Virus record (IMG/VR): IMGVR_UViG_3300034095_001584
Reading direction: 5' to 3' (one strand)
Length of the DNA stretch: 64,000 nucleotides
Origin: a virus
Lineage: Duplodnaviria > Heunggongvirae > Uroviricota > Caudoviricetes
Below the pieces are notes generated by a model. The model was not told where the DNA came from and made no database searches. It worked only from the letters and a program-made list of their open reading frames with translations. Both the position numbers and the translations under genes were made by a program. This document shows positions 5,749 through 63,358 of this stretch, in pieces. The first letter of the stretch is position 1; each line of letters opens with the position of its first letter.

Positions 5749-5751
5749 AAG

Positions 5752-38850: not shown

Positions 38851-38926
38851 TGGTGGACCGTGCTGGACTTGAACCAGCAACCGAAGAATTATGAGTTCTC
38901 TGCACAAACCATTATGCTAACGGTCC
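38851..38926 (-). tRNA. tRNA-Met/Ile2 (anticodon CAT), 76 nt, CCA encoded
   Basis: hand fold: GGACCGT/ACGGTCC acceptor, D stem GCAT/GTGC, anticodon loop CTCATAA, T arm GCTGG-TTCAAGT-CCAGC. Confidence 0.75.
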
Positions 38927-38949
38927 ATTAAAATTACTATTACTAAAAC

Positions 38950-39025
38950 TGGAGCGATATCTCGGACTTGCACCGGCCTTGTGGACTGGAAGGTCTACCG
39001 TGCTCCTCATAGACACTAATATCGC
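38950..39025 (-). tRNA. irregular tRNA-like gene, anticodon unresolved
   Basis: perfect 7-bp acceptor GCGATAT/ATATCGC plus CCA; D arm GTG-N10-CAC like its neighbour; weak T stem; no clean anticodon stem. Confidence 0.3.
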
Positions 39026-39033
39026 ATTAAAAA

Positions 39034-39106
39034 TGGAGCGGGTCCGAACTTTGCATTTCGCCTTTTAGTCTGGTAGACTAACGTGCTCTCTTTACACCTG
39101 ACCCGC
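39034..39106 (-). tRNA. tRNA-like gene, 73 nt, anticodon read as ACC (Gly?) - uncertain
   Basis: acceptor GCGGGTC/GACCCGC, T70, CCA; anticodon stem TTAGT/ACTAA with loop CTACCAG; 4-bp T stem with 8-nt loop ATGCAAAG. Confidence 0.4.
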
Positions 39107-39443
39107 ATATTAAATCAAAATAGGAAGGACTAATGATTACCTCCAAGTTTCAGAATCACGACTGGTTATTCATCCACAGTCCACACGGGTAATTACTCCT
39201 TGTGTTAATGACTGATGGGATTTTGTTTTCCCCACAACGGGCTACGATTTATCATATATTTTAGCTACGGTCCCGTTACGCTCAAATTTGGGGTTGAACG
39301 ACCTCAAATTCTCCATAGACTTACCCCCCATGATTCCTACTCCAACCAATATACAACGTTTTTCAACGCCATATATTGTGCGTTACAACTAAACTAATCG
39401 TTGTTCCGCCACTATCTTAAATTGTTAAAGAACTATCAAAAAA

Positions 39444-39721
39444 TGGTAGGCGTGAGTGGATTCGAACCACCGCTTTACAGATTTTCGTACCACTATAATT
39501 TTCATTACACATTTCTGTTTTGTGGTCTGGACTTTCTCTTCATCATAACATTTCTGTTTTAGATGTTTGCCGTTAAGTCTCTACACCTTCTCATTTCTGA
39601 GCTTGGCTCGGGATTGGCAGTTAAGCTTTCCCCGAATTTGACAAATTCTACTTTAGAGATTTCTCTCTAAGCACTCAATTTACGCTAAAGTCTGTTGACT
39701 CTTCCGCTGGTCTACACGCCC
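39444..39721 (-). tRNA. split tRNA gene (anticodon UAA, class I) interrupted by ~202-nt intron after U34
   Basis: 5' exon 39721..39688 holds acceptor GGGCGTG, D arm with GG, anticodon 5' stem ACAGA and CUU; 3' exon 39485..39444 holds AAAA, TCTGT, AAAGC, GGTGG-TTCGAAT-CCACT, CACGCCT, A, CCA. Confidence 0.6.
39486..39687 (-). ncRNA. putative group I intron in tRNA anticodon loop
   Basis: exon ends in U, intron ends in G; intron GAGU can pair with exon ACUU giving a U.G P1 helix; no ORF inside. Confidence 0.4.
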
Positions 39722-39806
39722 ATTTAAATTACTTACAAAGAACTATTACTTACTACTCTTTCATCTTATCACATCATCCTCTGATGTCAACTGGTTTTTC
39801 AAAAAA

Positions 39807-39890
39807 TGGTGGCTATGGAGGGACTTGCACCCCCACGGTTTTACCCACGGCTTTTTGAGAACCGCATGTCTTCTATTCCATCACATAGCC
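39807..39890 (-). tRNA. tRNA-Leu (anticodon CAA), class II with long variable arm, CCA encoded
   Basis: acceptor GGCTATG/CATAGCC, anticodon stem CGGTT/AGCCG with loop CTCAAAA, 14-nt variable arm, T arm GGGGG-TGCAAGT-CCCTC. Confidence 0.65.
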
Positions 39891-39898
39891 ATTAAATT

Positions 39899-39975
39899 TG
39901 GTAGTCCAGGTGGGGATTGCACCCACGACCTCACCCTTATAAGGAGTGTGCTCTGACAAACTGAGCTACTGGACC
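39899..39975 (-). tRNA. tRNA-Ile (anticodon UAU), 77 nt, CCA encoded
   Basis: acceptor GGTCCAG/CTGGACT (G1.U72), D arm GCTC-AGTTTGTCA-GAGC, anticodon loop CTTATAA, T arm GTGGG-TGCAATC-CCCAC. Confidence 0.65.
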
Positions 39976-40075
39976 ACTAAAGTTTTTTAAAGAACTAAAT
40001 TGTTGAATTCTTAGTTACAGAGTTTATTCTGTATGCAATAGTCACTACGTGCAAGTGATTCAACTTTGACTATCT

Positions 40076-40147
40076 AGCGGGGGAGGGAATCGAACCCCCT
40101 ACCTTCCGGTTATGAGCCGGACGATCTATTCCGTTGATCTACCCCGC
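40076..40147 (-). tRNA. tRNA (anticodon CAT), no encoded CCA
   Basis: acceptor GCGGGGT, D arm GATC-AACGGAATA-GATC, anticodon stem TCCGG/CCGGA with loop CTCATAA, T arm GGGGG-TTCGATT-CCCTC; one acceptor/T junction irregularity. Confidence 0.6.
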
Positions 40148-40439
40148 AAATTGTTTTGTTAAAGAACTAACTAAAATCGGTGTGGTTTATTTAAAGTCCA
40201 AACCACAAAATTACTAATGTTCACTTCAACATTAACGAGTTTCTTCTACCTTTGAAACTTCATTTTGAATGAGATTTTTAATCTAAGGTAACCAATCTCA
40301 ATTAACCTAAAATCATCTTATCACACATTGATGTTTTGTCAACATCTAAAATTGTCGCCGGTCTTTTAATTGGCGCTTTAATCCTCTGGTGGGGAACCAA
40401 CTCAAGTGTCCTATTAATCGGATATTCTCCGGGCGTAAA

Positions 40440-40515
40440 TGGTAGCTATGACAGGAATCAAACCTGTATATTCCATCTTATGAGGATGGCGCATCAATCA
40501 TTCTGCCACATAGCC
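40440..40515 (-). tRNA. tRNA (anticodon CAT), 76 nt, CCA encoded
   Basis: acceptor GGCTATG/CATAGCT (G1.U72), anticodon stem CCATC/GATGG with loop CTCATAA, T arm ACAGG-TTTGATT-CCTGT. Confidence 0.7.
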
Positions 40516-40522
40516 ACTGAAA

Positions 40523-40573
40523 TGGTCGCTCGCCTAAGAATCTCACTTAGTTACCAATGGTTATGAGCCATCG
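40523..40573 (-). pseudogene. truncated tRNA, 3' half only (CAT anticodon arm, T arm, acceptor 3' strand and CCA; no 5' half)
   Basis: GATGG-CTCATAA-CCATT, CTAAG-TGAGATT-CTTAG, GCGAGCG-A-CCA present; no complementary 5' acceptor or D arm within 60 nt. Confidence 0.4.
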
Positions 40574-40799
40574 TCAAATAATAACCTGCCGCCAGCTGTT
40601 TAAATTTAAAGAACAAATTAAAAATTGTGTTGGATGTGTTTATTGAATACTTTATCCACCCAACAAACAAAGTATACCATGACTCATCCCCGCAACCAAG
40701 AAGTTTTTTCAGAGACTTCCAACTCTAGGGGTGTTTTGGTTATTTACCCTCCACCAATCAGTTTTGTCTTCTGGACAACTGATCAACCAGAAATATATA

Positions 40800-41522
40800 T
40801 TACTCTATATTTAGTTTAGAGTCAACAAAATCTTTCAATTTTCTTACTCCTTTGCCTGAACAAACTCTTGAACAATATTGAAATTTAGCTGGCTTTCCAC
40901 AACATAAACATTTATTGTTTTTAACATTATGTGGATTTCCTTCATAAAGTTCAATGAAATTTTTCCCATATTTGGACTCTACATATTTAATTATAGGTTT
41001 AATTTCGTTTTTGTCAACCACTAAAATTTTTTCTGTAAAGTATTTTTGTTTATTTTCAAATTCTTTTTCTTTGTACCCTTTTATTTCAACATAAGTTTCT
41101 GACTCAATCAAATAAAAATCTGGATAATATTTAGAAACTTTTCCTTTTGTGTTTATATAATCAAATGATTTAGTATTGCGATTAAATCTTATATTAAGAT
41201 CAATTGAATAAATTACCCATGCTAATTCATAACTGCTATTACAGAATATACCTTTATACCATCCAGACTTTGATCTACCCGATCCCAGTCTAGCTCCACC
41301 GGATTTTCCTTTGAAAAATCCTTTATCTCTAGCTAACTCTTTACATTGCAAAGAACAGAATTTTCTTTTGTCAGACGGCCTAAGATACATTTTTTTATTA
41401 CATTCTACACAATGCAGAATTTTCTTTTCTTTTTTAGAAAGAATAAATTTATCTGGGTTTAATCTGACCAACTCTTTTAGTTTGTTTTTTATTTTTAATT
41501 TAGTTTCTTCAGAGTGTTTCAT
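40800..41522 (-). CDS. free-standing homing-endonuclease-like protein (NUMOD3-type motif, terminal zinc ribbons, possible PD-(D/E)xK core)
   Basis: HSEETKLKIKNKL resembles NUMOD3; CVEC...CSLQC and CLCCG...CSRVC; DFYLIESETYVEIKG; sits inside tRNA cluster. Confidence 0.45.
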   Translation of the reverse strand: MKHSEETKLKIKNKLKELVRLNPDKFILSKKEKKILHCVECNKKMYLRPSDKRKFCSLQCKELARDKGFFKGKSGGARLGSGRSKSGWYKGIFCNSSYELAWVIYSIDLNIRFNRNTKSFDYINTKGKVSKYYPDFYLIESETYVEIKGYKEKEFENKQKYFTEKILVVDKNEIKPIIKYVESKYGKNFIELYEGNPHNVKNNKCLCCGKPAKFQYCSRVCSGKGVRKLKDFVDSKLNIE

Positions 41523-42023
41523 ATCAATAAATAGTATGAACCCCTCTCAAACTATTGATTATTTTTGTCTTAAAAATGGTATCCCATAGCGGTGCTGCCC
41601 CGCTTTCTCCGGAGTGAAAGTCCAGTGATCTAGCTGATAATCTAATGGGACAATAAATTGGTAGGGCCTGACGGTAACGATCCGTCTTCCAGGGATTAAA
41701 AGTCCCTTGCTTCACCATTAAAGCTTAGACCCCATTAAAATTTGTTAAAGAACTTACTACAAAGTCATCTTACTACACATTCTTCTTTTGTCAACTATTT
41801 CTTTGTTCTTTGTTGGTGACTCCCTTTGATTAAAGGTCAAGGCAGTTCCGCCATACGTAGATGTTCTAGAGGAGTGCTTCTCCCACCATGCTGAAAGAAC
41901 AAAGAATCGTTTACTTACTACTTCTTTATCTTACCACTAAGTTTTCAAAGATCAACTTCTTTTTTCAAGAAGTTTTGAGGTAAATTATAAATATAATGAA
42001 ATATTCAAATTTTACCAGAAATT

Positions 42024-42099
42024 TGGTGTCCCCACCAGAAATCGAATCTGGATCATTCGCTTAGAAGGCGAATGCTCTAACCATTTGAGCTATAGGGAC
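42024..42099 (-). tRNA. tRNA-Arg (anticodon UCU), 76 nt, CCA encoded
   Basis: acceptor GTCCCTA/TGGGGAC, D arm GCTC-AAATGGTTA-GAGC, anticodon stem TTCGC/GCGAA with loop CTTCTAA, T arm CCAGA-TTCGATT-TCTGG. Confidence 0.8.
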
Positions 42100-44903: not shown

Positions 44904-45425
44904 TTACAGATTAATATATAATTTCTTGCCATCCTGACCACTATACTTGAATCTGGTAACAGGCACAGATAGGCTTAATCCTTCTTTGATATGAGGAAAC
45001 TTGCCTTTTTGTACATAAGCCACCGTCATGTGTGGTTTATAATCTGGATATTTATCCTCATTCTTATAACAATCACATCTACGTCTTATTTCAGATAGTA
45101 TCTCATTCTTTTCCACATCAAACTTGACCACATCATACTTTTCATTTTGAAATTGGGTTAAACCAGTAAGTTTAACAACAAATGGTTTGATACCTTGTAG
45201 GATAGTGGCTAAATTAGCCCTTGTTAAGTCAGGAGAATAACCATACTTAGCTGTAATGTGTGGTTCATCATCATAACCATAGGTACTGTCATTTGGATCT
45301 GTATAAAGAATTTGTGGTGGTATTACTGTTTTACCAAATTTAATGATGTGTGGTCCTCTGGTTGGTTCAACTATAGCCATTAAACAACCAAATTCATTGT
45401 GTCTATTTTCTGTAATCAAGTTCAT
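44904..45425 (-). CDS. 2H phosphoesterase (LigT/2',3'-cyclic phosphodiesterase-like)
   Basis: two HxTx motifs (PHITAKYG and PHMTVAYV) ~75 aa apart in a 173-aa protein. Confidence 0.6.
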   Translation of the reverse strand: MNLITENRHNEFGCLMAIVEPTRGPHIIKFGKTVIPPQILYTDPNDSTYGYDDEPHITAKYGYSPDLTRANLATILQGIKPFVVKLTGLTQFQNEKYDVVKFDVEKNEILSEIRRRCDCYKNEDKYPDYKPHMTVAYVQKGKFPHIKEGLSLSVPVTRFKYSGQDGKKLYINL

Positions 45426-53339: not shown

Positions 53340-54948
53340 CTAATTGTGTACTATCTAAATTCTGCAAAGCAGCTTGATAGTGCGTCAATATAGACTTACC
53401 TCTTACATTAAAAGAAGTGTTAACCAATATTGGATATCCACTTAATTTTTCAAATTCTCTCAAAATCTCATATAAATATGGATTTTGTTCTGATTTTAAT
53501 GTTTGCAATCTGGAGCTACCATCCACATGAGTAATTGCAGGTAACATCTTTCTATATTCCTCTCTAACTTTAGGACTGTAAGACATATAACTGTAATTAA
53601 CATTGTTAGATGTTTCAAAATACTTATGCGCATCTTCTTCACAACAAACAGGAGCAAATGGTCTAAACCATTCTCTGAATTTTACTTTCTTGTTTATATC
53701 ATCTTTAATGTTAAAGAGGCCAGGATGAGCAAGTATTGATCTATTTCCTAATGCTCTTGGTCCTACCTCACTATTACCTTGACACAATCCAATAATTTTA
53801 CCGTTGAATAGTTCTTTTGCAATTAAACTTGGATCTGCATGTTGCCATGGTCTATAAGTTAGAATGTGTGGTAGTGTTTCTTTATCAAGAATTTGACATC
53901 CACTATACATTGGTTCTTTTATCAATTTCTTTTTAAGATGTAAACACATAATACCGTATGATATTCCACTATCATTTGGACTACATGGCACATAAAAATT
54001 TGTATTTGGATACATCTTTGAAAGTTTATCATTCAAAAGTACATTTAAAGCACCACCCCCGGTCAAACAAACATTTTTATATATAATCGAATTGAAATGT
54101 TTTTTAAACTTCTCAAGAAATAAATTTTCAAATGCAAATTGAATGTTAAATGCTAAGTCATACGCACTTTTTCCATTAAAACTGTTGGTTGACTTACCAT
54201 CGTCAATAATATTGAAAAAAGTAGTATAATCAGGAAAGCTCTTTGTTGTCAAAAACTTATAACACTTATCATACAGTTCTTTGTTATATGATCCATATGC
54301 ACTTAATCCCATTAATTTACCTGCACCAGTCAAAATATTTAATGTTCTATCAGAAGATTTACTAATTTCTTTTATATAAATAGATGCCAAACTATAATTG
54401 GTGGTAAAATCTAAAAAGTCATGATCATTAAGTCTCTTTAAACCATCATTTTTATTAGCTTCATATAAACTATACATTCCATCATTACCACCACCATCAT
54501 AACTTACAACAAATGCGGAATCATATTCACTATCATAAAATGCAGAAGCCGCATGACAATCATGATGGTTATATCTATATACATTAACAATACCAAATTC
54601 TTTTTGTACTCTTGTATAGTAATCTAAACAAATTTCATTTGAACCTGGAGATGGTATAGTAAACAATCCAGTTTTAAATACATCATCAAATCCAAAGTCT
54701 TCAGCAATTTTCTTTACATATTTAAAAAAATAATCTTTTTCTGATTCAGATAACCTACCATATATAAAATATCTTTGACCCCACACTCTTTCTAATTCTA
54801 GAGATAATAGTTTGTTATCGGATGGTCTATAAAAACAAATATTACTATCATGACCATCAATATGAAATGAAATATACTGATCTGTATTGTTACTCATAAA
54901 ATTCAAATTTAAACTCATTATCAAATTGATATTGTATCCATGATTCAA
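53302..54948 (-). CDS. NodU/CmcH-family carbamoyltransferase
   Basis: N-terminal ISFHIDGHDSNICFY...LSLELERV pattern and 548-aa length fit the family. Confidence 0.7.
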   Translation of the reverse strand: MNHGYNINLIMSLNLNFMSNNTDQYISFHIDGHDSNICFYRPSDNKLLSLELERVWGQRYFIYGRLSESEKDYFFKYVKKIAEDFGFDDVFKTGLFTIPSPGSNEICLDYYTRVQKEFGIVNVYRYNHHDCHAASAFYDSEYDSAFVVSYDGGGNDGMYSLYEANKNDGLKRLNDHDFLDFTTNYSLASIYIKEISKSSDRTLNILTGAGKLMGLSAYGSYNKELYDKCYKFLTTKSFPDYTTFFNIIDDGKSTNSFNGKSAYDLAFNIQFAFENLFLEKFKKHFNSIIYKNVCLTGGGALNVLLNDKLSKMYPNTNFYVPCSPNDSGISYGIMCLHLKKKLIKEPMYSGCQILDKETLPHILTYRPWQHADPSLIAKELFNGKIIGLCQGNSEVGPRALGNRSILAHPGLFNIKDDINKKVKFREWFRPFAPVCCEEDAHKYFETSNNVNYSYMSYSPKVREEYRKMLPAITHVDGSSRLQTLKSEQNPYLYEILREFEKLSGYPILVNTSFNVRGKSILTHYQAALQNLDSTQLDGVILEKYYISK

Positions 54949-55270: not shown

Positions 55271-55993
55271 TTATTTTAATCCGTCATATGTGTTAATAAC
55301 AGTACGTTTTGTAAGTAGATCCTGATCAAGAATATCAATAGCTTTCTTTTTAGACTTATAAAAAGCATGCGTCAATGTCTTAAGATCCACATCTTCAACA
55401 TCATATCCCATTTTAACATACTTCACCAACCTCTTTAACGTTACACTAGGATAATAGATACTACCCTCATTAAACTTCAATTTGTTACTGTTGATTTCAT
55501 TTAAAACGTTTTCTCCACAAACAACATTAGTACCATCATAAGCAATACGACACACATTAATATCAAATGACTTAAATAGTTCTTCAATATTATCAAAATA
55601 CTTGAATGTTACACACTGAATCTTCCAGTCAACATCCATATACTTAATTGTAAGTGTACAATGCCATTCACTGTATATGGTAGATTCAATCGTATAATTG
55701 GAAAAAAGACTGCTTAAACTCATTGTTGAGACAAATATTTCAAATTGTTCTTTGTTTTTAAAGAACACATCTACATCAGCATTTGTTAATGGTAACTTAC
55801 GATAGGTTCTATGCAAACAACCACCTGCAATCCATGGACCATTTTCAGTACATTTAGGCAATAACTCAATCAAATATTCCAACGGAGAAATATTTGTCAA
55901 ATGACTTAAGAATTTAGTTAAAGGGATTTTTTCTAGTTTCATCGTAGGTACTTGTTGAAGTTCTACAAATTTAACATCAAGATTGATACTCAT
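55271..55993 (-). CDS. minimal nucleotidyltransferase-fold protein (Pol-beta superfamily-like)
   Basis: WIAGGCLHRTYRKLPLTNADVDVFF fits [GS]-x9-13-DxD signature. Confidence 0.4.
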   Translation of the reverse strand: MSINLDVKFVELQQVPTMKLEKIPLTKFLSHLTNISPLEYLIELLPKCTENGPWIAGGCLHRTYRKLPLTNADVDVFFKNKEQFEIFVSTMSLSSLFSNYTIESTIYSEWHCTLTIKYMDVDWKIQCVTFKYFDNIEELFKSFDINVCRIAYDGTNVVCGENVLNEINSNKLKFNEGSIYYPSVTLKRLVKYVKMGYDVEDVDLKTLTHAFYKSKKKAIDILDQDLLTKRTVINTYDGLK

Positions 55994-56213
55994 AAATTTT
56001 CTTTAATACGTTGGGATAACAATTGTCTGGGTAGTCTTTACTATTCTTTCCACTACTATAACTCAAACATACGGTTTCGTCAATCATCGGTTCAAACTTT
56101 CGCTTGGTTTTGTAAAACATATTTACACTATTATGACTGCAAGTTTGATAAAAATCACAACCTACACTCATACACATACCAATGTCATTTGTCTTGATAC
56201 TATACTTTTTCAT
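55977..56213 (-). CDS. hypothetical small Cys-containing protein
   Basis: 78-aa ORF. Confidence 0.35.
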   Translation of the reverse strand: MKKYSIKTNDIGMCMSVGCDFYQTCSHNSVNMFYKTKRKFEPMIDETVCLSYSSGKNSKDYPDNCYPNVLKKIYEYQS

Positions 56214-56251
56214 AAAAATAAGGGAGGTACTGTTACATACCTCCCTTTTAA

Positions 56252-57271
56252 TTAATCATTACTTCCAAGAAGATACGTATTGCTAATAGCCTTGAAACTA
56301 AACTCTCTTTCAAGACCACGTACAACCACACCTTCCCTATCAACTTCCATGTTCAATACACTCTTACCTTCAGCATACTTCAACATATAGTCAACAATAT
56401 TACTTTCATTTGGAATCACAAATCCATACTTCTCAAGCAATGGTACCATTTGCAATTGCAAACCAAACAATACCCACTCAAGTTCATCAAAGAACATACG
56501 GCGACCCTTATCAATGTCATAACCAGTAAAGAAAAACAACTTGTGGTCGCTCAATCCATACAAATTACCATTGATACCAGCACCAATAAGTTCTCCCTGC
56601 AAAGCAATGTTCTTGCCGTGTTTAGTCATCTTTTCCTTCAATTGAAGAACATTAGCCATACGCCATAGACTATTGTCACTAGTCTCACTCAATTCCCAAT
56701 TACGACCACAAACACCAAATACACCATTGTTGAAGTAACAAGTGAAACTAGTACCATCCAACTTTTCAGTCACATAAGCACGTTCACCAATTGGACTAAA
56801 TCCAACTTCACTCTCAAAGTTCTGAATACGAATTTCATCAGTCTTTGGGATAAAACTAGGAAATGTTCCTTTGATCTTACCAGCCAATTGAGCAGGAATA
56901 GGAGGTTCATACTTGACAATATCAAGAGCTTCAGTCAAATCATCACCTTCCCTTGGATTACTAATACCCTCTGGAATTGGAGTCAATAGACCTTGACTAA
57001 TTTGTCCACGCAACCTAATGGTCTTGAGACGAAATCCCTCACTAGAACCCATACGCTTGTAACTACTCTTGCGCAGAAATTCAAATTGAGGACGAATAGG
57101 CAAAAAGCTGTCAATCTCATAATAAACAGCCAAATCCCCCACCTTGTATTCATTAACCTTTACTACAACCTTCCAACCCTTAACGGTAGCCACTACAATA
57201 GCATCAGCACCCGGAATAGGTTGAATGTCAACAATCTTAACAACACTAGCCAATTTACGTTCAGTAGTCAT
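56252..57271 (-). CDS. ATP-dependent RNA ligase (Rnl5/DraRnl-like: N-terminal OB fold plus nucleotidyltransferase)
   Basis: N-terminus KLASVVKIVDIQPIPGADAIVVATVKGWKVVVK...; motif I EKLDGTS. Confidence 0.65.
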   Translation of the reverse strand: MTTERKLASVVKIVDIQPIPGADAIVVATVKGWKVVVKVNEYKVGDLAVYYEIDSFLPIRPQFEFLRKSSYKRMGSSEGFRLKTIRLRGQISQGLLTPIPEGISNPREGDDLTEALDIVKYEPPIPAQLAGKIKGTFPSFIPKTDEIRIQNFESEVGFSPIGERAYVTEKLDGTSFTCYFNNGVFGVCGRNWELSETSDNSLWRMANVLQLKEKMTKHGKNIALQGELIGAGINGNLYGLSDHKLFFFTGYDIDKGRRMFFDELEWVLFGLQLQMVPLLEKYGFVIPNESNIVDYMLKYAEGKSVLNMEVDREGVVVRGLEREFSFKAISNTYLLGSND

Positions 57272-57324
57272 TTACATCCTTTCAATTACTCCTTAACTCT
57301 ACCATGCGATTTAAACAAAGTCAA

Positions 57325-57353
57325 CAAAAAACCCGCCAGATTTCTCTGACGGG
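57325..57353 (-). terminator. rho-independent terminator
   Basis: cccgccag...ctgacggg stem (one G.U), T-run on minus strand. Confidence 0.5.
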
Positions 57354-57374
57354 TTTCTCCACTTTTCCTACCAC

Positions 57375-58280
57375 TTATCGGTTGGTGTTTCCAATGTTAA
57401 CGAACGGTACAACACCACCTCCATTATATACCGGCAACTTACCATCCCACCTCTGAAGCGCTTCATATTGAACCAGTGCCGGAGTTAGAGACTGAGCCAA
57501 CACCAAGTTAGCCTTGGACTGTGCCTCTGCCTTAAGGGCAATACTCTTTGCCTCACCTTCCGCCTTGGCAATGTTACTTTCCTTCTCACCACGAGCCTTT
57601 TCAATCACTTGATCCGCCTCAGCCTTACTTTGACGAACCTTGGTTTCAGCCTCAATAGCCTTTTGACTAGCTTCTAGGACTGCGTTAATACGAGTTTGAA
57701 CACTTTGATCAACACGAAGACCACCATGGAAACTGATCAATTCAAACTTAAATCCCTTGGGTCCAAGTTGTACATTAAGATTACTCTTAACATTGTCAAG
57801 AAGGTACTGTTTCCGTTCACCAAAGATATCACTAGCCTTCATGGTACTAGCAACACGGTTGAATGCGTTATTCACTTCATTCCTCATAAATCCGTGAGTA
57901 ATAACATCAGGTGACTGACGGAATTCAACAAAGATTTGAGGAACCTTCTCTGCCACAAATGTATAAGCAAGAGCAATGTCAGCATTAACAACAGCACCTT
58001 CAATACTATTAAAGGTCACACTGTCATCACCAGGACTTTCCTTACTACCACGTTCACGGTCCCACACAGCATTCTGCATGAAGGTAGGGAACTTATAGAT
58101 ATCCTCAGTGAGTGGATTGTAGAACACACCACCAGTAACCAACGGAAAATCATTGACTCCCTTTTGGTTACCCCACTGATTTACCTTGATACCAACATAA
58201 CCAGGCTCAACCCTATCACAACCAGTAAAGGTTGAAATGGCGACGATACCAGCGATTACACTAACGAGCTTCTTATTCAT
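57375..58280 (-). CDS. SPFH/band-7 (prohibitin/HflK-like) lipoprotein
   Basis: lipobox AISTFTGCD; SPFH core; Ala/Glu/Lys-rich coiled-coil tail. Confidence 0.75.
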   Translation of the reverse strand: MNKKLVSVIAGIVAISTFTGCDRVEPGYVGIKVNQWGNQKGVNDFPLVTGGVFYNPLTEDIYKFPTFMQNAVWDRERGSKESPGDDSVTFNSIEGAVVNADIALAYTFVAEKVPQIFVEFRQSPDVITHGFMRNEVNNAFNRVASTMKASDIFGERKQYLLDNVKSNLNVQLGPKGFKFELISFHGGLRVDQSVQTRINAVLEASQKAIEAETKVRQSKAEADQVIEKARGEKESNIAKAEGEAKSIALKAEAQSKANLVLAQSLTPALVQYEALQRWDGKLPVYNGGGVVPFVNIGNTNR

Positions 58281-58509
58281 TTTCTTTGTTTTCAGTTTTG
58301 TTGATGTTTTTTACCAACTTGGTCACATCACTTTTTAAGATTACCATCGTACCAACGAAAAGTCCAGCGAAAAGTGCGGACCCGATAAGATTTGCAACAT
58401 CGCTCTTTTGATTAATCAATGTGACGGATGCGTTAAAAATGTACGCACCCACCGCCATCAACACAAAATACTTTGCACTATACTTTACAATATTTTTATT
58501 ACTAAACAT
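58273..58509 (-). CDS. small two-TM membrane protein (candidate partner of the SPFH protein)
   Basis: 78 aa, two hydrophobic helices; 8-nt overlap with SPFH gene. Confidence 0.5.
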   Translation of the reverse strand: MFSNKNIVKYSAKYFVLMAVGAYIFNASVTLINQKSDVANLIGSALFAGLFVGTMVILKSDVTKLVKNINKTENKENE

Positions 58510-58512
58510 ATA

Positions 58513-58902
58513 TTAATTTTCCTTGATATAAAGTTCTGGAACCTCAGAGGTCAATGGAATAACCACATCTTCCAAAGGTTCATCTGATTCAGACGCACCA
58601 TAATTGCCGTCTCTTGTGTTTGGAATAGGCAGATACTCAGTAGTCCAATGTTCACGACATTCCTTGGCAGTCTTCTTCAATGGAGGAAGTTCATCACCAT
58701 CCATGTCATACACAATGATATACTGAAAACTATTATTATATGTACAATCATTGTATTCACTATGAACTACAATAACCATTGTGGTTGCTTCAGGAGGATA
58801 ATACTTCTTGGCAAACGCAATGTGTTCTTTATACTTTTGTGTATTAGGAACATAACCAAGTTTGGCTAGATCCTGTAATGTTGCTCTACGATATGTACTC
58901 AT
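58513..58902 (-). CDS. hypothetical protein
   Basis: 129-aa ORF. Confidence 0.45.
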   Translation of the reverse strand: MSTYRRATLQDLAKLGYVPNTQKYKEHIAFAKKYYPPEATTMVIVVHSEYNDCTYNNSFQYIIVYDMDGDELPPLKKTAKECREHWTTEYLPIPNTRDGNYGASESDEPLEDVVIPLTSEVPELYIKEN

Positions 58903-58905
58903 ATA

Positions 58906-59292
58906 TTAATAGTTTAGAACGTCCTCACGGGTAATAGATAGATGTTCATATTCATCACCATATAGGTCTTCATGGATACAATGAACATCACCAAAAAGTT
59001 CAATTAGTGATTCAAGCACAGGATTTGGTTTATATTCCTTCGTTGCATTATCCCACTCCCGTTCAACTTCTTCACCTTCTACTACAATCTTGAGATCTTC
59101 ATATCCAATATAGAATGAGGTTGCGCCACCATCATTAAATTCGTGGTTATTAATATACATCTCAACGCTGTCCAATGTAGGATTATCCACAAAGATCTTC
59201 TTTAGACCAGTCTTAAACTCATTCTGGAGTTCTGACTTAACTGTGTTGAGTTGATTCTTTAGCTCTTCAATTTTCTTAAGTGATTCCTTCAT
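58906..59292 (-). CDS. hypothetical protein with N-terminal coiled coil
   Basis: 128-aa ORF. Confidence 0.45.
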   Translation of the reverse strand: MKESLKKIEELKNQLNTVKSELQNEFKTGLKKIFVDNPTLDSVEMYINNHEFNDGGATSFYIGYEDLKIVVEGEEVEREWDNATKEYKPNPVLESLIELFGDVHCIHEDLYGDEYEHLSITREDVLNY

Positions 59293-59305
59293 ATGTTTTG
59301 TTTTA

Positions 59306-59782
59306 TTAGTCTCCGATTACGTTCTTGATACTACCACTGAAAGTTTTAGAAGTCAAACCATTTTTAGCACGGGATTTACGACCTTCATCAATCTTCACAA
59401 AGCTGGGAGGATGTGAAATGCCATTCTGCATCCAACTCTTGAACTCCATTTCAGCCAGATAGTCTTGGGCTGAAGGAATAAACTTATTAGCAAAGTCTTC
59501 CAAACAATGTTGTTCACCAATATCCCGCACACTTACACTACGTCCATCACTATTAATAATAGTAGGAAAACGATGATCACTGGTTTCTGGACCACTATTG
59601 GCAAACTTTACCCGTTCCAGAATATTACTAAGAAACCAACTATTGTGTGTTAAAGCACGATGTCGGTTATCCGCAATTGCGCCTTTACTACAATCCATGA
59701 ACGAGTGTATAGGTTCATAATCTTCTGGCTTACCGCCGAATTTACGGACGGAACTTTGAGCGTGAATGTATGGTTTTGACAT
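59306..59782 (-). CDS. hypothetical protein
   Basis: 158-aa ORF. Confidence 0.45.
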   Translation of the reverse strand: MSKPYIHAQSSVRKFGGKPEDYEPIHSFMDCSKGAIADNRHRALTHNSWFLSNILERVKFANSGPETSDHRFPTIINSDGRSVSVRDIGEQHCLEDFANKFIPSAQDYLAEMEFKSWMQNGISHPPSFVKIDEGRKSRAKNGLTSKTFSGSIKNVIGD

Positions 59783-59820
59783 AACAAATTCAATCTACCA
59801 CGGGTTTTATAACAAGTCAA

Positions 59821-59852
59821 CAAAAAATCCCCTCTTTTTACGGAGGGGATTT
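59821..59852 (-). terminator. rho-independent terminator
   Basis: atcccctc...gaggggat stem, T-run on minus strand. Confidence 0.6.
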
Positions 59853-59858
59853 GTATAC

Positions 59859-60533
59859 TTAATGATGTTTATCATGCTTGACATGATTTTTATTCATCAT
59901 AATCTTCTGAATTTCTGGAAAAGACAATGGTTTGCCATGACCATCCCAACCAACATCCAGAATTTTATTGTCTGGATATTCTACTTGAGTGGTTGGATTG
60001 GTGTAGTGGCTATGTCCACTCAACTGCCAAGCACCCTTTTGCATTTGGTTAAAGATTTGATGTGGGTAATGATGAATAACAATCATATGACCGTTTACAA
60101 TCAATTCCTTATAATAACCCAGATAAGTTAGTTTACCAATTGCATATGGATACACTTCAATGCCATCATTAGGACTGTTACCAGTGAATCTAACCATATT
60201 CAAATGGCCAGCAACAGCATCTTCATAATGCTTACGAATACAGCTGTTATGATTACCCCAAATATAAGCAATATTTTGACAGTTGATTCTATCTAGAATT
60301 TGCACAAACTCTGGAGGAGTAATATTTAGACAAAAATCACCCAAATGAATTAGTGTATCTTGTGGACGCACCACTTCATTGATCTTTGCAATCAAAGCAT
60401 CATCGTGTTCATAACGATCTTTATAACCTCTAGCTTCAAATATGAAGCTTTGATTATGCCGGAAATGAGTATCACTGGTAAAGAATACCTTGTGATCATC
60501 ATTATGAATTAGTTTTAGCGGTCTTTCAAACAT
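59859..60533 (-). CDS. calcineurin-like metallophosphoesterase (candidate RNA 3'-phosphatase, Pnkp-type)
   Basis: SDTHF, GDF, GNHN, GHSH motifs; 8-nt overlap with kinase gene. Confidence 0.7.
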   Translation of the reverse strand: MFERPLKLIHNDDHKVFFTSDTHFRHNQSFIFEARGYKDRYEHDDALIAKINEVVRPQDTLIHLGDFCLNITPPEFVQILDRINCQNIAYIWGNHNSCIRKHYEDAVAGHLNMVRFTGNSPNDGIEVYPYAIGKLTYLGYYKELIVNGHMIVIHHYPHQIFNQMQKGAWQLSGHSHYTNPTTQVEYPDNKILDVGWDGHGKPLSFPEIQKIMMNKNHVKHDKHH

Positions 60534-60981
60534 AAATTACCTCATCAATACCTTCACTATGTGAAGGTTCTTCAAACTTAGCAAGCATTTTGTCAATAAC
60601 CCAATCAGGTACAACTCTACCACCTTCTTGGCCTCTCTTTTTATTTCTATCAATTAGACCTTGACGATCCATCTTGAAGACAAGAGCAACTACTTTTGCG
60701 CCATATTTCTTTGCGGTGGTAATGTAATCAGCTCTTTCCTTACGGTTTACACTGGTTGCATCAACCAATACATTTTTACCATCTTTTAGAAATTCGTCAA
60801 CCTTTCTTTTGATGTGACCAAAAACAAGTGGGGTAACGGTTTGATCATCTTCACCTTTACCAAATACAGCACGTAGTTCATCACTACTTAGGTATTCAAT
60901 ATCTTTATCTTTAATAAAGTTCTTTGCGTAAGTGGATTTACCGCTTCCAGGCAATCCAACAGCGATATAAATTGTACTCAT
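60526..60981 (-). CDS. P-loop polynucleotide 5'-kinase (T4 Pnk kinase-domain-like)
   Basis: GLPGSGKSTYA Walker A; NKKRGQEGGRVVPDWVIDKM parallels T4 Pnk NSKRG..VP. Confidence 0.7.
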   Translation of the reverse strand: MSTIYIAVGLPGSGKSTYAKNFIKDKDIEYLSSDELRAVFGKGEDDQTVTPLVFGHIKRKVDEFLKDGKNVLVDATSVNRKERADYITTAKKYGAKVVALVFKMDRQGLIDRNKKRGQEGGRVVPDWVIDKMLAKFEEPSHSEGIDEVIYV

Positions 60982-61042
60982 GTTGTTACTGTAACATAAC
61001 TTTTTCTAAGGTCAACCATTTTTGTTTTTATATGTATGTGAT

Positions 61043-61672
61043 ATGTTGACTGAAATGGATCTAAATCGTCTTAAACGTAAATACAATTTAAATTTAAAAG
61101 GTATAATAAACGTAGGCAGTTATTTAGCTAGTGAATATGATTTATATAAAAAGTTAAATGTAAACAATATAATTTTTATAGAAGCCAATCCAAATATAAT
61201 TGATAAATTAAAAATGCGTGTAGGACTTGAATGTATTATATTGAACCATTTAGTTTATGATAAAGATGATGTAGAATTGGATTTTAAGATATCCAATCAT
61301 TTACAATCTTCTTCCTTGTTGGATTTTAAACAACACAAAATCTATTATCCTGAATTATCTAATGTAATTGATACTATTAGATTAAAAACAAAAAAGCTTG
61401 ATACGTTAATAGAAGAAAACCATATTGATATGAATAAATTCAATATGTTAATGATGGATGTTCAAGGAACAGAAAAATTAGTATTGGATGGATTTGTAAA
61501 ATATATAAAACACATAGAATACATTTATACTGAAATTAATTTTGAGGAAATGTATAAAGACTGTGTATTGTTTGATACACTTAATGAATGTTTAAAGACT
61601 CACGGATTTAAACTTATTGAATATTTTGATACTAACAAAGGATGGGGAGATGCTTTATATGGAAAAGTATAA
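61043..61672 (+). CDS. FkbM-family methyltransferase (putative)
   Basis: IINVGSYLASEY and C-terminal LMMDVQGTEKLVLDG; track ORF starts at TTG 61022, first ATG 61043. Confidence 0.45.
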   Translation: MLTEMDLNRLKRKYNLNLKGIINVGSYLASEYDLYKKLNVNNIIFIEANPNIIDKLKMRVGLECIILNHLVYDKDDVELDFKISNHLQSSSLLDFKQHKIYYPELSNVIDTIRLKTKKLDTLIEENHIDMNKFNMLMMDVQGTEKLVLDGFVKYIKHIEYIYTEINFEEMYKDCVLFDTLNECLKTHGFKLIEYFDTNKGWGDALYGKV

Positions 61673-62408
61673 AAATAAAATATGTATAGTGATAAGTAGT
61701 TGTGACAAATATCTAAGATTGGCAGATGTACAATTACATTTTTTCAAGAAATACTGGCCAAATTGTCCCCTTGATATTTTTTATATTACAGAGACAAAAC
61801 CAATTCCTAATATTGATTCTAATTTAAAAATTATAAATTTTATTACTCATATTGATCCTGTAGGACCATCAGACTGGGGTAAAAATTTAAAGATGTTATT
61901 TGATTCAACCAAATATGATTATATTTTATACACCCAAGACGATTATATATTTACTGATTTTGTTGATGAAGGTAAATTGTCACAATTGTTTAAATATGTA
62001 ATTGAAAATGATATTAATTATTTAAGATTTTATGGAAGTCCTGGTATGTGCACACACAAACTTATAACAATATCTGACGATGTAAAGATAAGAGAGATAC
62101 CAAAAGATTGTTTATTCAGAGCCAGTTTAATGATTGCAATATGGAATAAAAACACATTCAATAATTTAATTCATACAAATTATGGTATTACTCCATGGAA
62201 ATTTGAATTGAATAATATTGACCGTGAATATGATAAATTTTATTGTGTAGATCTAAAAAGAGAAGATGACAGTGATGTAATAAAATTTACAGGAATTTAT
62301 GGATCAGGAGATAATTTACAAATTTATCCACATGTAAAACAAATGATTAAAAATGAAAATATAAAAACATCTACGGGAGAAAACTTTGATGTTGACTTAA
62401 AATTGTAA
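61650..62408 (+). CDS. hypothetical protein (possible glycan-modifying enzyme)
   Basis: track ORF starts at TTG 61617; ATG candidates at 61650 and 61659. Confidence 0.4.
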   Translation: MLYMEKYKNKICIVISSCDKYLRLADVQLHFFKKYWPNCPLDIFYITETKPIPNIDSNLKIINFITHIDPVGPSDWGKNLKMLFDSTKYDYILYTQDDYIFTDFVDEGKLSQLFKYVIENDINYLRFYGSPGMCTHKLITISDDVKIREIPKDCLFRASLMIAIWNKNTFNNLIHTNYGITPWKFELNNIDREYDKFYCVDLKREDDSDVIKFTGIYGSGDNLQIYPHVKQMIKNENIKTSTGENFDVDLKL

Positions 62409-62496
62409 AGTTAGTGTAAAAGATGTTTATTTAGGGTATGTGATATGGTATGTATAGAATGTAATCTATGGTGGTTACTAAACAAAAGGAAAATAT

Positions 62497-62817
62497 ATGT
62501 ATAAGTATCTATTAGTGTTAGCCGCAGCATTTACCTTAAATGCTCAAGAAGGTCCAAAAGGTCCACCTCCAGGTGAAGGCCGTACACCCCGTCCAAAGTT
62601 GACTGAGGAACAAAAGAAGCAACGTAGTGAATTGATTGCTAAATATGACGCAAACAAAGACGGTAAGTTGGACAAGGAAGAACGTACCAAGGTCAGTGAT
62701 GATGATCGTAAACTATTGAGAAGTTTTGGGCCACCAGCAGGCGGTCCAAGAGGTCCAAAACATGACGGTCCACCAAAAGATGGTGAAAGACTAGGTAAAC
62801 CAAAGAAGAAAGACTAA
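62497..62817 (+). CDS. secreted EF-hand calcium-binding, Pro/Gly-rich protein
   Basis: signal-like N-terminus; DANKDGKLDKEE canonical 12-residue EF loop. Confidence 0.55.
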   Translation: MYKYLLVLAAAFTLNAQEGPKGPPPGEGRTPRPKLTEEQKKQRSELIAKYDANKDGKLDKEERTKVSDDDRKLLRSFGPPAGGPRGPKHDGPPKDGERLGKPKKKD

Positions 62818-62828
62818 TAAACAAATAA

Positions 62829-62853
62829 CCCCACTTTTAACGGTGGGGTTTTT
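62829..62853. terminator. bidirectional rho-independent terminator at convergent junction
   Basis: ccccac-ttttaacg-gtgggg followed by TTTTT, A-rich before. Confidence 0.7.
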
Positions 62854-62859
62854 CATTAT

Positions 62860-63357
62860 TTATGATGTTGGTAAACTATTTTTAAAGGCATCATATTGAT
62901 TATGATTTCCTACAAATATCCATACAATTTTGAATCCATTTGGTATGTCAGTTTTAATTCCAACTGATCTGTAATTTGCGTTTATAGCAATACTCCAATA
63001 ATTACCTTTTCTATGTTTTAAAGGTTTGAAATGTAATGATGGTTCTTTTGAATCTTTTAAAAATAACTTATATCTTTCTATAGCAGTTCTTTTTATTGGT
63101 TCTGGTAAATTGTTATACAATTCCCACCAATCACCTGTAGGAACACTTACTATAGTAAGAGATGGTGGTGTTGTAGGCGTAACAGATTGTGGATTTTTAG
63201 CTTCTGATATACCCAATAACTTTTCAAATGCTCCAGAATTATCTTCTGTAGTATCAAATACACTCCAGTCTACTTTTTCTTCCCAGTTGTAATCATTTAA
63301 TGATTCAAGAAGCAGTTTCTTATGTTTTTCAAATGTTGTTGTGAATATATCATTCAT
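62860..63357 (-). CDS. hypothetical protein
   Basis: 165-aa ORF. Confidence 0.5.
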   Translation of the reverse strand: MNDIFTTTFEKHKKLLLESLNDYNWEEKVDWSVFDTTEDNSGAFEKLLGISEAKNPQSVTPTTPPSLTIVSVPTGDWWELYNNLPEPIKRTAIERYKLFLKDSKEPSLHFKPLKHRKGNYWSIAINANYRSVGIKTDIPNGFKIVWIFVGNHNQYDAFKNSLPTS

Positions 63358-63358
63358 A

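Follow-up and report, generated by a model that had tools for sequence, protein, structure and literature searches.

Metal-independent host ribonucleases generate RNA breaks that end in a 5'-OH and a 2',3'-cyclic phosphate or 3'-phosphate. The question raised by the locus described here is whether three genes of an uncultured large phage, coding for a kinase, a metallophosphoesterase and a ligase, and all located on the minus strand of the 64,000-nucleotide stretch that was analysed (the window), could act together on such ends. The first-pass annotation of this DNA, whose coordinates for the three reading frames were confirmed, had proposed a healing-and-sealing role; this is the best reading, supported by conserved gene linkage, and the three predicted activities probably constitute a phage-encoded RNA repair kit. 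The catalytic residue sets are intact in all three proteins, whose activities, like the identity of the broken RNA, are inferred.

Three predicted enzymes and their relatives

The kinase gene (60526..60981, minus strand) encodes a 151-aa polynucleotide 5'-kinase-like P-loop protein, recognized through profile and PDB matches, that carries the motifs GLPGSGKST and RNKKRGQEGGRVVP. It matches Pfam family PF13671 (AAA_33, 1.4e-27) and TIGR04075, which describes the N-terminus of bacterial Pnkp (1.6e-21), while its PDB matches are led by the kinase domain of Clostridium thermocellum Pnkp (CthPnkp, 4gp7, 1.4e-15), followed by Pnkp1 (8.3e-11) and T4 Pnk (1.7e-9). The families that score best are the bacterial Pnkp N-terminus, PSTK and PNK, E being only about 1e-3 for gluconokinase and adenylate kinase, and the protein thus does not fall within an unrelated P-loop family. 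Residues K15/S16/T17, S33-D34, R37 and T76 align to K21/S22/T23, S37-D38, R41 and T80 of CthPnk, whose roles have been described (PMC3902929), and R112, R116 and R122 align to its R116, R120 and R123. The protein therefore keeps the general-base Asp, the lid arginines and the SD..R acceptor motif specific to Pnk, among them polynucleotide-acceptor residues that are missing from NMP kinases. By sequence this is a Pnk-clade P-loop kinase, in agreement with the T4 Pnk-type assignment originally made.

The adjoining gene (59859..60533, minus strand) encodes a 224-aa binuclear metallophosphoesterase, a candidate 3'-end healing enzyme in which all five family motifs (5/5) are present, including the GNH histidine reported to determine 2',3'-cyclic phosphodiesterase activity (PMC3675462). 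The earlier description of a calcineurin-type, Pnkp-style phosphatase holds as regards the metallophosphoesterase family but not the clade, since the protein falls in the uncharacterised aq_1665 clade and not in that of lambda-phosphatase and Pnkp. Aquifex aeolicus aq_1665 (PDB 1xm7) has no assigned function, and the match therefore gives the phage protein a clade, not a substrate. Structural relatives include Rv0805, GpdQ, MPPED2 and Lmo2642, and the other structural neighbours, among which are cyclic-nucleotide and lipid phosphodiesterases and nucleases, count against a repair function. The family is large, comprising 6372 representative clusters.

The third gene (56252..57271, minus strand) encodes a 339-aa ATP-dependent RNA ligase with N-terminal OB and nucleotidyltransferase domains. 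It matches Naegleria gruberi NgrRnl (PDB 5cot) over residues 5-335 (E 1.8e-69; 44.6% identity over 325 positions), as well as PF21189 (2.5e-40) and PF09414 (2e-23), and passes the equivalog cut-off of TIGR02306 with 194.7 bits against 151.15. Like those of the kinase and of the 2H phosphoesterase described below, these matches greatly exceed what chance would give. The predicted nucleotidylated lysine, K170, lies within EKLDGTS, and in the alignment all 14 of the 14 NgrRnl active-site residues, whose roles are known (PMC7261155), are kept (R5, D54, K120, T144, D145, R148, K170, D172, G173, R190, E227, F248, E313 and K327). Motifs I, III, IIIa, IV and V are all present, and the sequence is that of a full-length Rnl5 family member, as the Rnl5/DraRnl-type label had anticipated. 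NgrRnl and Deinococcus radiodurans DraRnl share its two-domain architecture; the characterised Rnl5 members, however, are cellular and unlinked to end-healing genes, the operon partner of DraRnl being a DEDDh-like protein, whereas linkage to kinase and phosphoesterase genes sets the phage ligase apart.

These assignments bear on the suggestion that the cassette is a bacterial Pnkp gene split into three. The order of kinase, metallophosphoesterase and ligase matches the domain order of Pnkp, the Pnkp kinase domain is both the top profile and the top structure match of the phage kinase, as well as its closest solved relative, and the Clostridium thermocellum Pnkp-Hen1 system likewise employs a binuclear metallophosphoesterase for 3'-end healing. 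Pnkp is, however, a single polypeptide with a lambda-phosphatase-like module and an Rnl4 ligase, while the phage genes specify an aq_1665-like phosphoesterase, outside the Pnkp clade, and an Rnl5 ligase; moreover, a Hen1 partner was not found near the trio. The splitting of a Pnkp gene, which the title of the first-pass annotation implies, is thus very improbable.

Organization of the locus

The phosphoesterase and kinase genes overlap by exactly 8 nt (60526-60533), as noted at the outset, and the distance from the phosphoesterase stop to the ligase start is 2.6 kb. All elements of this interval lie on the minus strand. Immediately past the phosphoesterase stop codon is a terminator-like hairpin (59825..59852, 10-bp stem and T run), followed by a promoter-like site (59792..59820, TTGACTT...GTGGTAGATT) 5' of a DUF6915 gene (59306-59782; PF21866, 2.8e-33). 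This gene opens a variable, five-gene insert (57375..59782), absent in part or whole from related contigs, that continues with two unknown ORFs of 128 aa (58906-59292) and 129 aa (58513-58902), a 78-aa membrane protein (58273-58509) and an SPFH lipoprotein (57375-58280; PF01145, 1.6e-17), matching the earlier description of an SPFH lipoprotein pair and three unknowns. A second hairpin (57326..57359, 15-bp stem and T run) lies 3' of the SPFH gene, a promoter-like site (57296..57324, TTGACTT...ATGGTAGAGT) lies 5' of the ligase gene, and a third hairpin (56220..56247, 11-bp stem and T run) immediately follows the ligase stop codon; the TTGACTT-type motif is repeated at 59356-59328 and at 57324-57296. 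The region is thereby divided into three transcription units (kinase-phosphoesterase, insert and ligase) by terminator-like hairpins followed by promoter-like sites, and consequently the genes do not form one operon here, which counts against a joint function.

The five genes of the insert are missing to varying extents from close relatives and represent an indel, a variability that the first-pass annotation had not noted. The gap between phosphoesterase and ligase shrinks to 90-250 nt in related contigs L007, L012, L019 and L026, while L014 and L016 keep only the 78-aa membrane protein and SPFH genes of the insert. The kinase, phosphoesterase and ligase genes are contiguous in at least four contig groups; in L007, they occupy 4887-5336, 5332-6003 and 6097-7110. 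The insert probably lies outside the repair function. In a 66%-identical relative (a 303-kb contig), the ligase and the kinase-phosphoesterase pair are separated by about 50 kb and lie on opposite strands, an arrangement that also argues against the kit.

Conservation of gene linkage

Another possibility is that the three genes merely adjoin in an accessory region of variable content and have no function in common, with the phosphoesterase acting on a nucleotide or cyclic-nucleotide signal or a small phosphoester, the kinase on a small molecule, and the ligase independently. The separate transcription units, the indel-rich surroundings, the displaced ligase of the 66% relative, the size and structural relatives of the phosphoesterase family, and its rare pairing with a kinase in cellular genomes (5/43) all fit this possibility. 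More distant genomes were considered through 44 clusters in which the phosphoesterase is 26-46% identical, with a neighbourhood window of 6 kb. An AAA_33 kinase was present within that distance in 23/44 phage clusters, directly adjoining in 11/44, and a ligase of Rnl5 architecture in 13/44; neighbouring kinase and ligase genes were always co-oriented with the phosphoesterase. Even at a generous chance rate of 12%, the kinase-phosphoesterase pairing gives a binomial p of about 1e-10. The kinase seldom adjoins in cellular genomes (5/43 phosphoesterase loci; Fisher p = 7e-5 versus phages), and among the phages it was not found nearby in 21/44 clusters, while neither healing gene lay within 6 kb in 27/47 Rnl5 clusters; both absences are held against the kit.

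The pair also adjoins a second RNA ligase family. An Rnl1-type ligase (PF09511) neighbours kinase and phosphoesterase in E. coli phage PHB05, Aeromonas phage 2L372X, Pseudomonas phage EM and Vibrio phage VPG01, and in Pasteurellaceae (L227, L244) a 492-496 aa AAA_33 kinase-Rnl1 fusion is encoded directly upstream of an aq_1665-clade phosphoesterase. In a Ruminococcus MAG contig (L248), kinase, phosphoesterase and Rnl5 ligase follow one another, separated by just 12 and 1 nt. Association with two ligase families, the fusion, the conserved 8-nt overlap, the retention of a co-oriented pair at such low identity and the polynucleotide-acceptor residues of the kinase make mere coincidence of unrelated genes quite unlikely.

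The initial view that the three-gene arrangement is distinctive was not borne out, as the pair or trio recurs in many phages, cultured ones included. Comparative surveys have already described such kits, and the present one is consequently of a recognised type. Iyer, Anantharaman, Krishnan, Burroughs and Aravind (2021, PMC7824862, citing Burroughs and Aravind 2016) reported sets in which phage RNA ligases act with polynucleotide kinases and phosphoesterases, as here; those of large phages also contain tRNA arrays, 2H enzymes and a Pol-beta nucleotidyltransferase associated with the ligase. In a minority of jumbo phages, the usual HAD phosphatase of those sets is replaced by a calcineurin-like phosphoesterase, and the phage ligases named are Rnl1, Rnl2 and RtcB, while the present locus combines Rnl5 with an aq_1665-clade phosphoesterase.

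Proposed repair pathway and associated genes

In the proposed RNA repair kit, the kinase and phosphoesterase would form a translationally coupled healing pair acting on 5'-OH and 2',3'-cyclic-phosphate or 3'-phosphate RNA ends. The kinase would transfer the gamma-phosphate of an NTP to the 5'-OH, with Asp34 as putative general base, Arg37 holding the acceptor, and Lys15/Ser16 and Mg2+ acting on the donor; the metallophosphoesterase would strip the cyclic or 3' phosphate, its presumed substrate, to leave a 3'-OH; and the ligase, adenylylated on Lys170, would pass AMP onto the 5'-phosphate and seal the break. T4 Pnkp and Rnl1 follow the same logic in tRNA repair (5'-kinase, 3'-end phosphatase, ATP-dependent ligase) and the kinases are homologous, but in T4 a HAD (DxDxT) phosphatase is fused to the kinase and Rnl1 is a specialist of the tRNA anticodon loop, as opposed to a separate metallophosphoesterase candidate and a ligase of the nick-sealing Rnl5 family. 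Characterised Rnl5 enzymes favour nicked duplexes, and their feebleness on single-strand RNA (PMC4408790) is a point against the kit. The target would therefore more likely be a base-paired break than an open anticodon loop, with which this preference fits awkwardly; the countering of tRNA anticodon nucleases is thus a tentative and somewhat doubtful suggestion.

A rival idea is that the kit mends nicks in phage DNA or at RNA-DNA junctions: DNA ends bearing 5'-OH and 3'-phosphate groups would be cleaned up by the kinase and phosphoesterase, in the manner of PNKP enzymes, and Rnl5 would seal nicks whose 3'-OH belongs to a short ribonucleotide patch. Rnl5 needs RNA solely at the 3'-OH side of the nick, both the template and the 5'-phosphate strand being allowed to be DNA, and the sole physiological phenotype of any Rnl5 enzyme, counted against RNA repair, is in DNA-damage recovery (PMC4408790, PMC5397189), where DraRnl loss leads to ionising-radiation sensitivity and slower genome reassembly in Deinococcus (PMC5397189). 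Moreover, CthPnk crystals contained DNA oligonucleotide acceptors (PMC3902929), and an ATP-dependent DNA ligase is encoded 0.5-0.7 kb away from the PHB05 and 2L372X clusters. Such a route would, however, be needless for phages with a separate DNA ligase, and the healing pair elsewhere partners, or is fused through its kinase to, Rnl1-type ligases, a family described as suited to RNA stem-loop breaks (PMC4408790). DNA repair is therefore an unlikely function, and RNA repair is preferred.

Two further genes accompany the ligase. A 78-aa Cys-rich ORF (55977..56213, minus strand), which yielded no family match in the profile search, follows it in relatives at 76-100% identity, and overlaps by 17 nt the start of a conserved gene, second downstream of the ligase and overlooked in the first-pass annotation, for a 240-aa Pol-beta-fold nucleotidyltransferase (55271..55993, minus strand). 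The latter holds the invariant residues G57G58, D73xD75 and D144 and follows the ligase in most relatives, while in L102 it sits between phosphoesterase and kinase. It may be a fourth component that mends RNA 3' ends; alternatively, it may have no connection with the kit and serve anti-defence as a member of the Gad2 family, whose profile (PF26128) it matches in precomputed Pfam annotation; anti-Gabija Gad2 is about 400 aa in length, with a mechanism not known in the preprint (Yirmiya et al., bioRxiv 10.1101/2023.05.01.538930). RlaP is likewise a Pol-beta enzyme encoded beside an RNA ligase, but its profile (PF10127) was not found in profile searches. As compared to both, the predicted fold is nearest to class II CCA-adding enzymes: each of the best 25 Foldseek matches of the AF2 model (pLDDT 71) is either a class II CCA/A-adding enzyme or poly(A) polymerase I.

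The cassette had been placed beside the tRNA cluster, which in fact lies 14 kb from the ligase (38851..42099, minus strand) and comprises seven genes detected by ARAGORN (three CAU, Leu-CAA, Ile-UAU, Lys-UUU and Arg-UCU). The 173-aa 2H phosphoesterase listed with the toolkit (44904..45425, minus strand), at most a tentative member of the kit, is 11 kb away and was recovered with PF13563 (2.9e-10), with TIGR02258 (4.2e-6) under its cut-off, and with both HxT motifs, HIT and HMT.

The locus and its source

The genes of interest lie on the minus strand of the window and, read 5' to 3', begin with that of a 151-aa P-loop kinase (60981-60526), which is overlapped by 8 nt by the start of the gene encoding a 224-aa phosphoesterase (60533-59859). 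Five small genes (57375-59782, minus strand), encoding a DUF6915 protein, two unknowns (128 and 129 aa), a small membrane protein (78 aa) and an SPFH/Band-7 lipoprotein (301 aa), separate this pair from a 339-aa Rnl5 ligase (57271-56252). There follow, on the same strand, a 78-aa Cys-rich ORF (55977-56213) and, overlapped at its start by 17 nt, a 240-aa Pol-beta nucleotidyltransferase (55993-55271); the Cys-rich ORF, for which no family match was found, travels with the ligase and the nucleotidyltransferase in relatives. The kinase, phosphoesterase and ligase genes are thereby confirmed where the first-pass annotation had located them, and a search of the window for paralogues of these three and of the nucleotidyltransferase found none, each being present in a single copy.

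The window has a G+C content of 32.3% and is near-identical to IMG/VR contigs, with related contigs reaching 296-304 kb. No close GenBank relative was found, blastn returning only four records that each cover at most 3% of the query; the window thus comes from a large phage that has not been cultured.

Families and catalytic residues of the three enzymes

The kinase carries the P-loop GxxGxGK[ST] (G9-LPGSGKST-17), and its best solved relatives are the C. thermocellum Pnkp kinase domain (1.4e-15) and PSTK (1.5e-11), followed by Capnocytophaga Pnkp1 (8.3e-11) and T4 Pnk (1.7e-9). Among NCBIfam profiles the N-terminus of bacter_Pnkp ranks best (1.6e-21), ahead of PSTK (1.3e-15) and PNK-3'Pase (1.1e-10). 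In an alignment with the C. thermocellum domain (CthPnk), K15 and S16 correspond to P-loop residues K21 and S22, S33-D34 to S37-D38, with D34 matching the general base D38, R37 and T76 to the acceptor-binding R41 and T80, and the lid residues R112, R116 and R122 to R116, R120 and R123; these CthPnk residues have been shown to be essential, and their roles are taken from PMC3902929. The T4 Pnk counterparts of the acceptor-site Asp and Arg are D35 and R38. The first-pass annotation had named a match to an unrelated P-loop family, such as the adenylate or gluconate kinases, as the outcome that would overturn its Pnk assignment, but these reach only 1.1e-3 and 2.3e-3, respectively; the closer Pnk-type matches and the retention of the CthPnk residues therefore speak for the Pnk type. 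The protein has the features of the polynucleotide 5'-kinase clade represented by T4 Pnk and CthPnk, and its predicted activity is to phosphorylate 5'-OH ends of RNA or DNA.

As a single sequence the phosphoesterase has no Pfam match; its only PDB match is aq_1665 (1xm7, 9e-6), it falls in the PHROGs family phrog_547 (phosphoesterase, 5e-35), and PF00149 is matched by 32 of 73 relatives. The protein has the metallophosphoesterase fold, and all five motifs of the binuclear enzymes (DxH, GD, GNH, H and GHxH) are present, the residues D21/H23, G65/D66, G93/N94/H95, H155 and G173/H174/H176 being invariant or at least 90% conserved among the 73 relatives. Following the GD motif the sequence reads GDFCLN, and the arginine of GDxxDR, the motif of the lambda-phosphatase/Pnkp clade, is absent, so that the initial description of a Pnkp-type calcineurin phosphatase is right as to the calcineurin type and wrong as to Pnkp. 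Neither the single sequence nor the family profile matches the CthPnkp phosphatase or lambda phosphatase at E<=1, and structural comparison reveals a likeness at the superfamily level only. The protein retains the GNH histidine, for which a determining role in 2',3'-cyclic phosphodiesterase activity has been reported (PMC3675462).

The phosphoesterase is a member of the aq_1665 clade, a clade without a known substrate, and at least 861 GenBank phage records carry its family. An exhaustive search yielded 6372 representative clusters of relatives; among the 150 that score best, every protein stands alone, none exceeds 299 aa and most lengths lie around 210-230 aa, so that none of these 150 is a kinase fusion. 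A defence-system reading was rejected: the only PADLOC match was a weak, partial one of the phosphoesterase to the candidate system PDC-S10 (8e-6, residues 56-108), probably due to no more than the metallophosphoesterase motif region that the two share.

The ligase combines a PHA02142 N-terminal OB domain (PF21189, residues 7-99) with an RNA_ligase nucleotidyltransferase domain (PF09414, residues 166-328 of 339) and lacks a C-terminal appendage, as is characteristic of Rnl5. It aligns end to end with Naegleria gruberi NgrRnl (5-335 in both proteins; E 1.8e-69, 44.6% identity over 325 aligned positions), and scores 194.7 bits, above the cut-off of 151.15, with TIGR02306 (RNA_lig_DRB0094, the DraRnl equivalog). 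Motifs I, III, IIIa, IV and V are kept (nucleophile K170, D172, E227, F248, E313 and K327), as are the ATP contacts of the N-terminal domain (R5, D54, K120 and R148) and, with T144, D145, G173 and R190, the entire set of residues with which NgrRnl contacts ATP or its two metals in the Michaelis complex, from which these roles are taken (PMC7261155). By every feature that can be tested in the sequence, the protein is an Rnl5 ligase, with a predicted Mn2+-dependent activity on 3'-OH(RNA)/5'-PO4 nicks in duplexes, and the family assignments initially proposed for all three enzymes are borne out by the sequence criteria applied.

A distinct phage subfamily of the same architecture (PHA02142 OB plus RNA_ligase) has the motif I K(L/I)HGT instead of KLDGT; its members (about 372-393 aa; loci L084, L085, L093, L102, L109, L110, L124 and L135) often adjoin the same kinase and phosphoesterase. 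At locus L129 (L129:366-3188 and L129:4741-6221), which also encodes a T4-type Pnk-HAD fusion, an Rnl5-like ligase is apparently split by an intein (PF14890 match).

Gene organization and linkage to RNA ligases

Terminator-like hairpins are located directly 3' of the phosphoesterase, SPFH and ligase stop codons, and just after each of the first two comes a promoter-like site, the sequence TTGACTT...(G/A)TGGTAGAnT being common to both. The kinase-phosphoesterase pair, the insert and the ligase are therefore co-oriented neighbours in separate transcription units and not one operon. The module formed by a hairpin with a T-run followed by TTGACTT-N14-(G/A)TGGTAG recurs between genes at 59792-59852, 57296-57359, 59328-59356 and 56220-56247 (minus strand), and the pattern in relaxed form occurs 6 times in the window, where 1.67 occurrences would be expected; these modules resemble one common class of phage promoter whose -10 is extended.

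In close relatives the overlap between the kinase and phosphoesterase genes is retained and the five insert genes are variably missing. In four contig groups (L007, L012, L019 and L026) the ligase follows the phosphoesterase by 90-250 nt, and in other close relatives only the membrane protein and the SPFH protein are left of the insert. The insert is thus an indel within a block in which kinase, phosphoesterase and ligase were ancestrally contiguous. The membrane protein and the SPFH protein always travel together among these close relatives. The exception to this organization is IMGVR_UViG_3300037042_006844 (loci L055/L063 and L219), a 303-kb contig of about 66% identity in which the Rnl5 gene lies on the opposite strand, some 50 kb from the kinase and phosphoesterase, indicating that linkage to the ligase is not obligatory.

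Distant phosphoesterase loci were collected with a 13-sequence alignment for viral contigs and a 6-sequence alignment for genomes, and neighbours were considered within 6 kb. The distant phage phosphoesterases are 26-46% identical, and an AAA_33 kinase is present in 23 of their 44 clusters (directly adjacent in 11, either upstream or downstream), a ligase of Rnl5 architecture in 13, and both in 12, all on the same strand; the identities of the linked genes were confirmed by Pfam on samples. In cellular loci a kinase is found in only 5 of 43 (Fisher p = 7e-5 versus the phage set). When the Rnl5 ligases are taken as the starting point, 20 of 47 clusters have a kinase or phosphoesterase gene no more than 6 kb away, and the remaining 27 lack both in that range.

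The ligase that joins the pair is not always Rnl5. E. coli phage PHB05 and Aeromonas phage 2L372X have the order phosphoesterase, RNA ligase, 'ATPase', and Pseudomonas phage EM and Vibrio phage VPG01 also have these three genes, within a stretch of 3 kb; the 'ATPase' of each of the four phages belongs to the same AAA_33 kinase family, and the ligase is of the Rnl1 type (PF09511). In the Pasteurellaceae Actinobacillus indolicus and LFhippo2 (L244:4462-6660 and L227:4478-6666), a 492-496-aa fusion of an AAA_33 kinase and Rnl1 stands directly upstream of an aq_1665-type phosphoesterase, and a Ruminococcus MAG contig carries a kinase(+HD)-phosphoesterase-Rnl5 array with gaps of 12 and 1 nt. Kinase and phosphoesterase are thus a conserved pair, repeatedly joined to an RNA ligase from one of two families, which is the pattern expected of end-healing enzymes that serve a sealing enzyme. 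This linkage upholds the probable repair role proposed at first; the arrangement, which had been called distinctive, is not, the same pair or trio being found in many phages.

A predicted heal-and-seal pathway and its neighbourhood

Phage RNA repair as an answer to host ribotoxins is an established idea, whose biochemistry has, to our knowledge, been elucidated only in T4 (Pnkp and Rnl1) and, among bacteria, for Pnkp-Hen1 and RtcB. Heal-and-seal for RNA is the best-supported reading of the trio: its families, catalytic residues and linkage are established, and its predicted activities would together mend RNA breaks with 5'-OH and 2',3'-cyclic or 3'-phosphate ends. T4 Pnkp with Rnl1 and bacterial Pnkp-Hen1 follow the same logic, but the present kit belongs to neither system. 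It has no HAD domain; the 151-aa kinase is without a second domain, whereas a HAD (DxDxT) 3'-phosphatase is fused to the kinase of T4, and the one true Pnk-HAD fusion encountered is in L129, an unrelated locus, where it lies directly upstream of an aq_1665-type phosphoesterase. Bacterial Pnkp is a single polypeptide, whereas the kit is made of three genes, and TIGR04075 gives the kinase 76 bits against a cut-off of 750, over profile positions 12-134 only. In addition, bacterial Pnkp employs a lambda-phosphatase-type phosphatase (GDxxDR) and Rnl4, in contrast to the phosphoesterase of another clade and the Rnl5 found here. The Pnkp ancestry advanced by the first-pass annotation is wrong. Hen1 was not found in the genes flanking the kinase upstream (61022-63745), where the only methyltransferase is of the FkbM type and on the opposite strand.

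Characterised Rnl5 enzymes seal nicks in duplexes whose 3'-OH strand is RNA and act only feebly on single strands; the substrates they meet physiologically have been called unknown, and their sole phenotype is in recovery from DNA damage (PMC4408790, PMC5397189). These properties weaken the proposal of a specific anticodon-loop target and leave the repair of DNA or RNA-DNA nicks by the kit as a less probable rival. For the heal-and-seal reading, the surroundings provide a general theme only: a 2H phosphoesterase (44904-45425, -), with HIT and HMT motifs and a PF13563 score of 40.8 bits against a cut-off of 27, has the two HxT/S motifs and the profile match of its superfamily, and seven tRNA genes (38851-42099, minus strand) comprise three CAU (Met/Ile2/fMet-type), Leu-CAA, Ile-UAU, Lys-UUU and Arg-UCU. 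Both are 11-14 kb off, the tRNA cluster being 14 kb from the ligase and not beside the cassette as had been claimed. The tRNAs read A/U-rich codons, suiting a genome of 32% G+C, and the set includes isoacceptors targeted by known anticodon nucleases, e.g. Lys-UUU and Arg.

In the nucleotidyltransferase (55271-55993) the Pol-beta catalytic residues, GG, DxD and D, are invariant. It follows the ligase in most relatives; in a distant phage (L102) it lies between phosphoesterase and kinase. The top 25 PDB matches in Foldseek are all class II CCA-/A-adding enzymes or poly(A) polymerase I, at TM of about 0.5, with an AF2 model of moderate confidence (pLDDT 71) built from a shallow alignment; enzymes of this family are about twice as long as the protein, and PF01743 reaches at best E 0.054, in one homologue. 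The enzyme may act in RNA 3'-end repair, by analogy with RlaP (PMC12776372), or it may be an unrelated anti-defence gene. Membership of the RlaP family itself (PF10127) was rejected, no Pfam match being obtained in the local library even at E<=5. Its precomputed Pfam family is PF26128 (Gad2), after the anti-Gabija nucleotidyltransferase of Bacillus phages, for which no mechanism was yet known at the time of its description (bioRxiv 10.1101/2023.05.01.538930).

Kits of this kind are already known from comparative surveys, since Iyer et al. (2021) list polynucleotide kinases and phosphoesterases as companions of phage RNA ligases, the calcineurin-like type being an occasional phosphatase, together with ligase-associated nucleotidyltransferases, 2H enzymes and tRNA arrays (PMC7824862). 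The present locus adds to them, and the conceptual picture is unchanged because such surveys already predict these kits. In the literature within our reach, we did not find it stated that aq_1665-clade phosphoesterases pair with small AAA_33 kinases across many phage lineages, nor that Rnl5 is one of two regular partners. The locus and its relatives point to a widespread, putative alternative healing pair, a small AAA_33 kinase and an aq_1665-type metallophosphoesterase, which would work with Rnl1 or Rnl5; if confirmed, this would provide a function for a phosphoesterase family whose annotations in hundreds of phage genomes are no more than generic, and a biological role for Rnl5 ligases. A broader joint reading, which we hold tentatively and rate somewhat below an even chance, is that Rnl5 would be the sealing step in the repair of ribonuclease-inflicted RNA breaks, its first physiological context, that the aq_1665 clade would be a second metallophosphoesterase lineage of RNA 3'-end healing, independent of bacterial Pnkp, and that the Gad2-family mini nucleotidyltransferase might act on RNA 3' ends. 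If true, the latter role would hint at how Gad2-type proteins work.

Further genes in the vicinity include a NodU/CmcH-type carbamoyltransferase (PF16861 at 9e-61, and PF02543) just downstream of the repair genes (53302-54948, minus strand), a 165-aa protein with a weak match to a ParE-like toxin domain (7e-4; 62860-63357, minus strand), and a Pro/Gly/Lys-rich protein of 106 aa that looks secreted and matches EF-hand domains weakly (62497-62817, plus strand).
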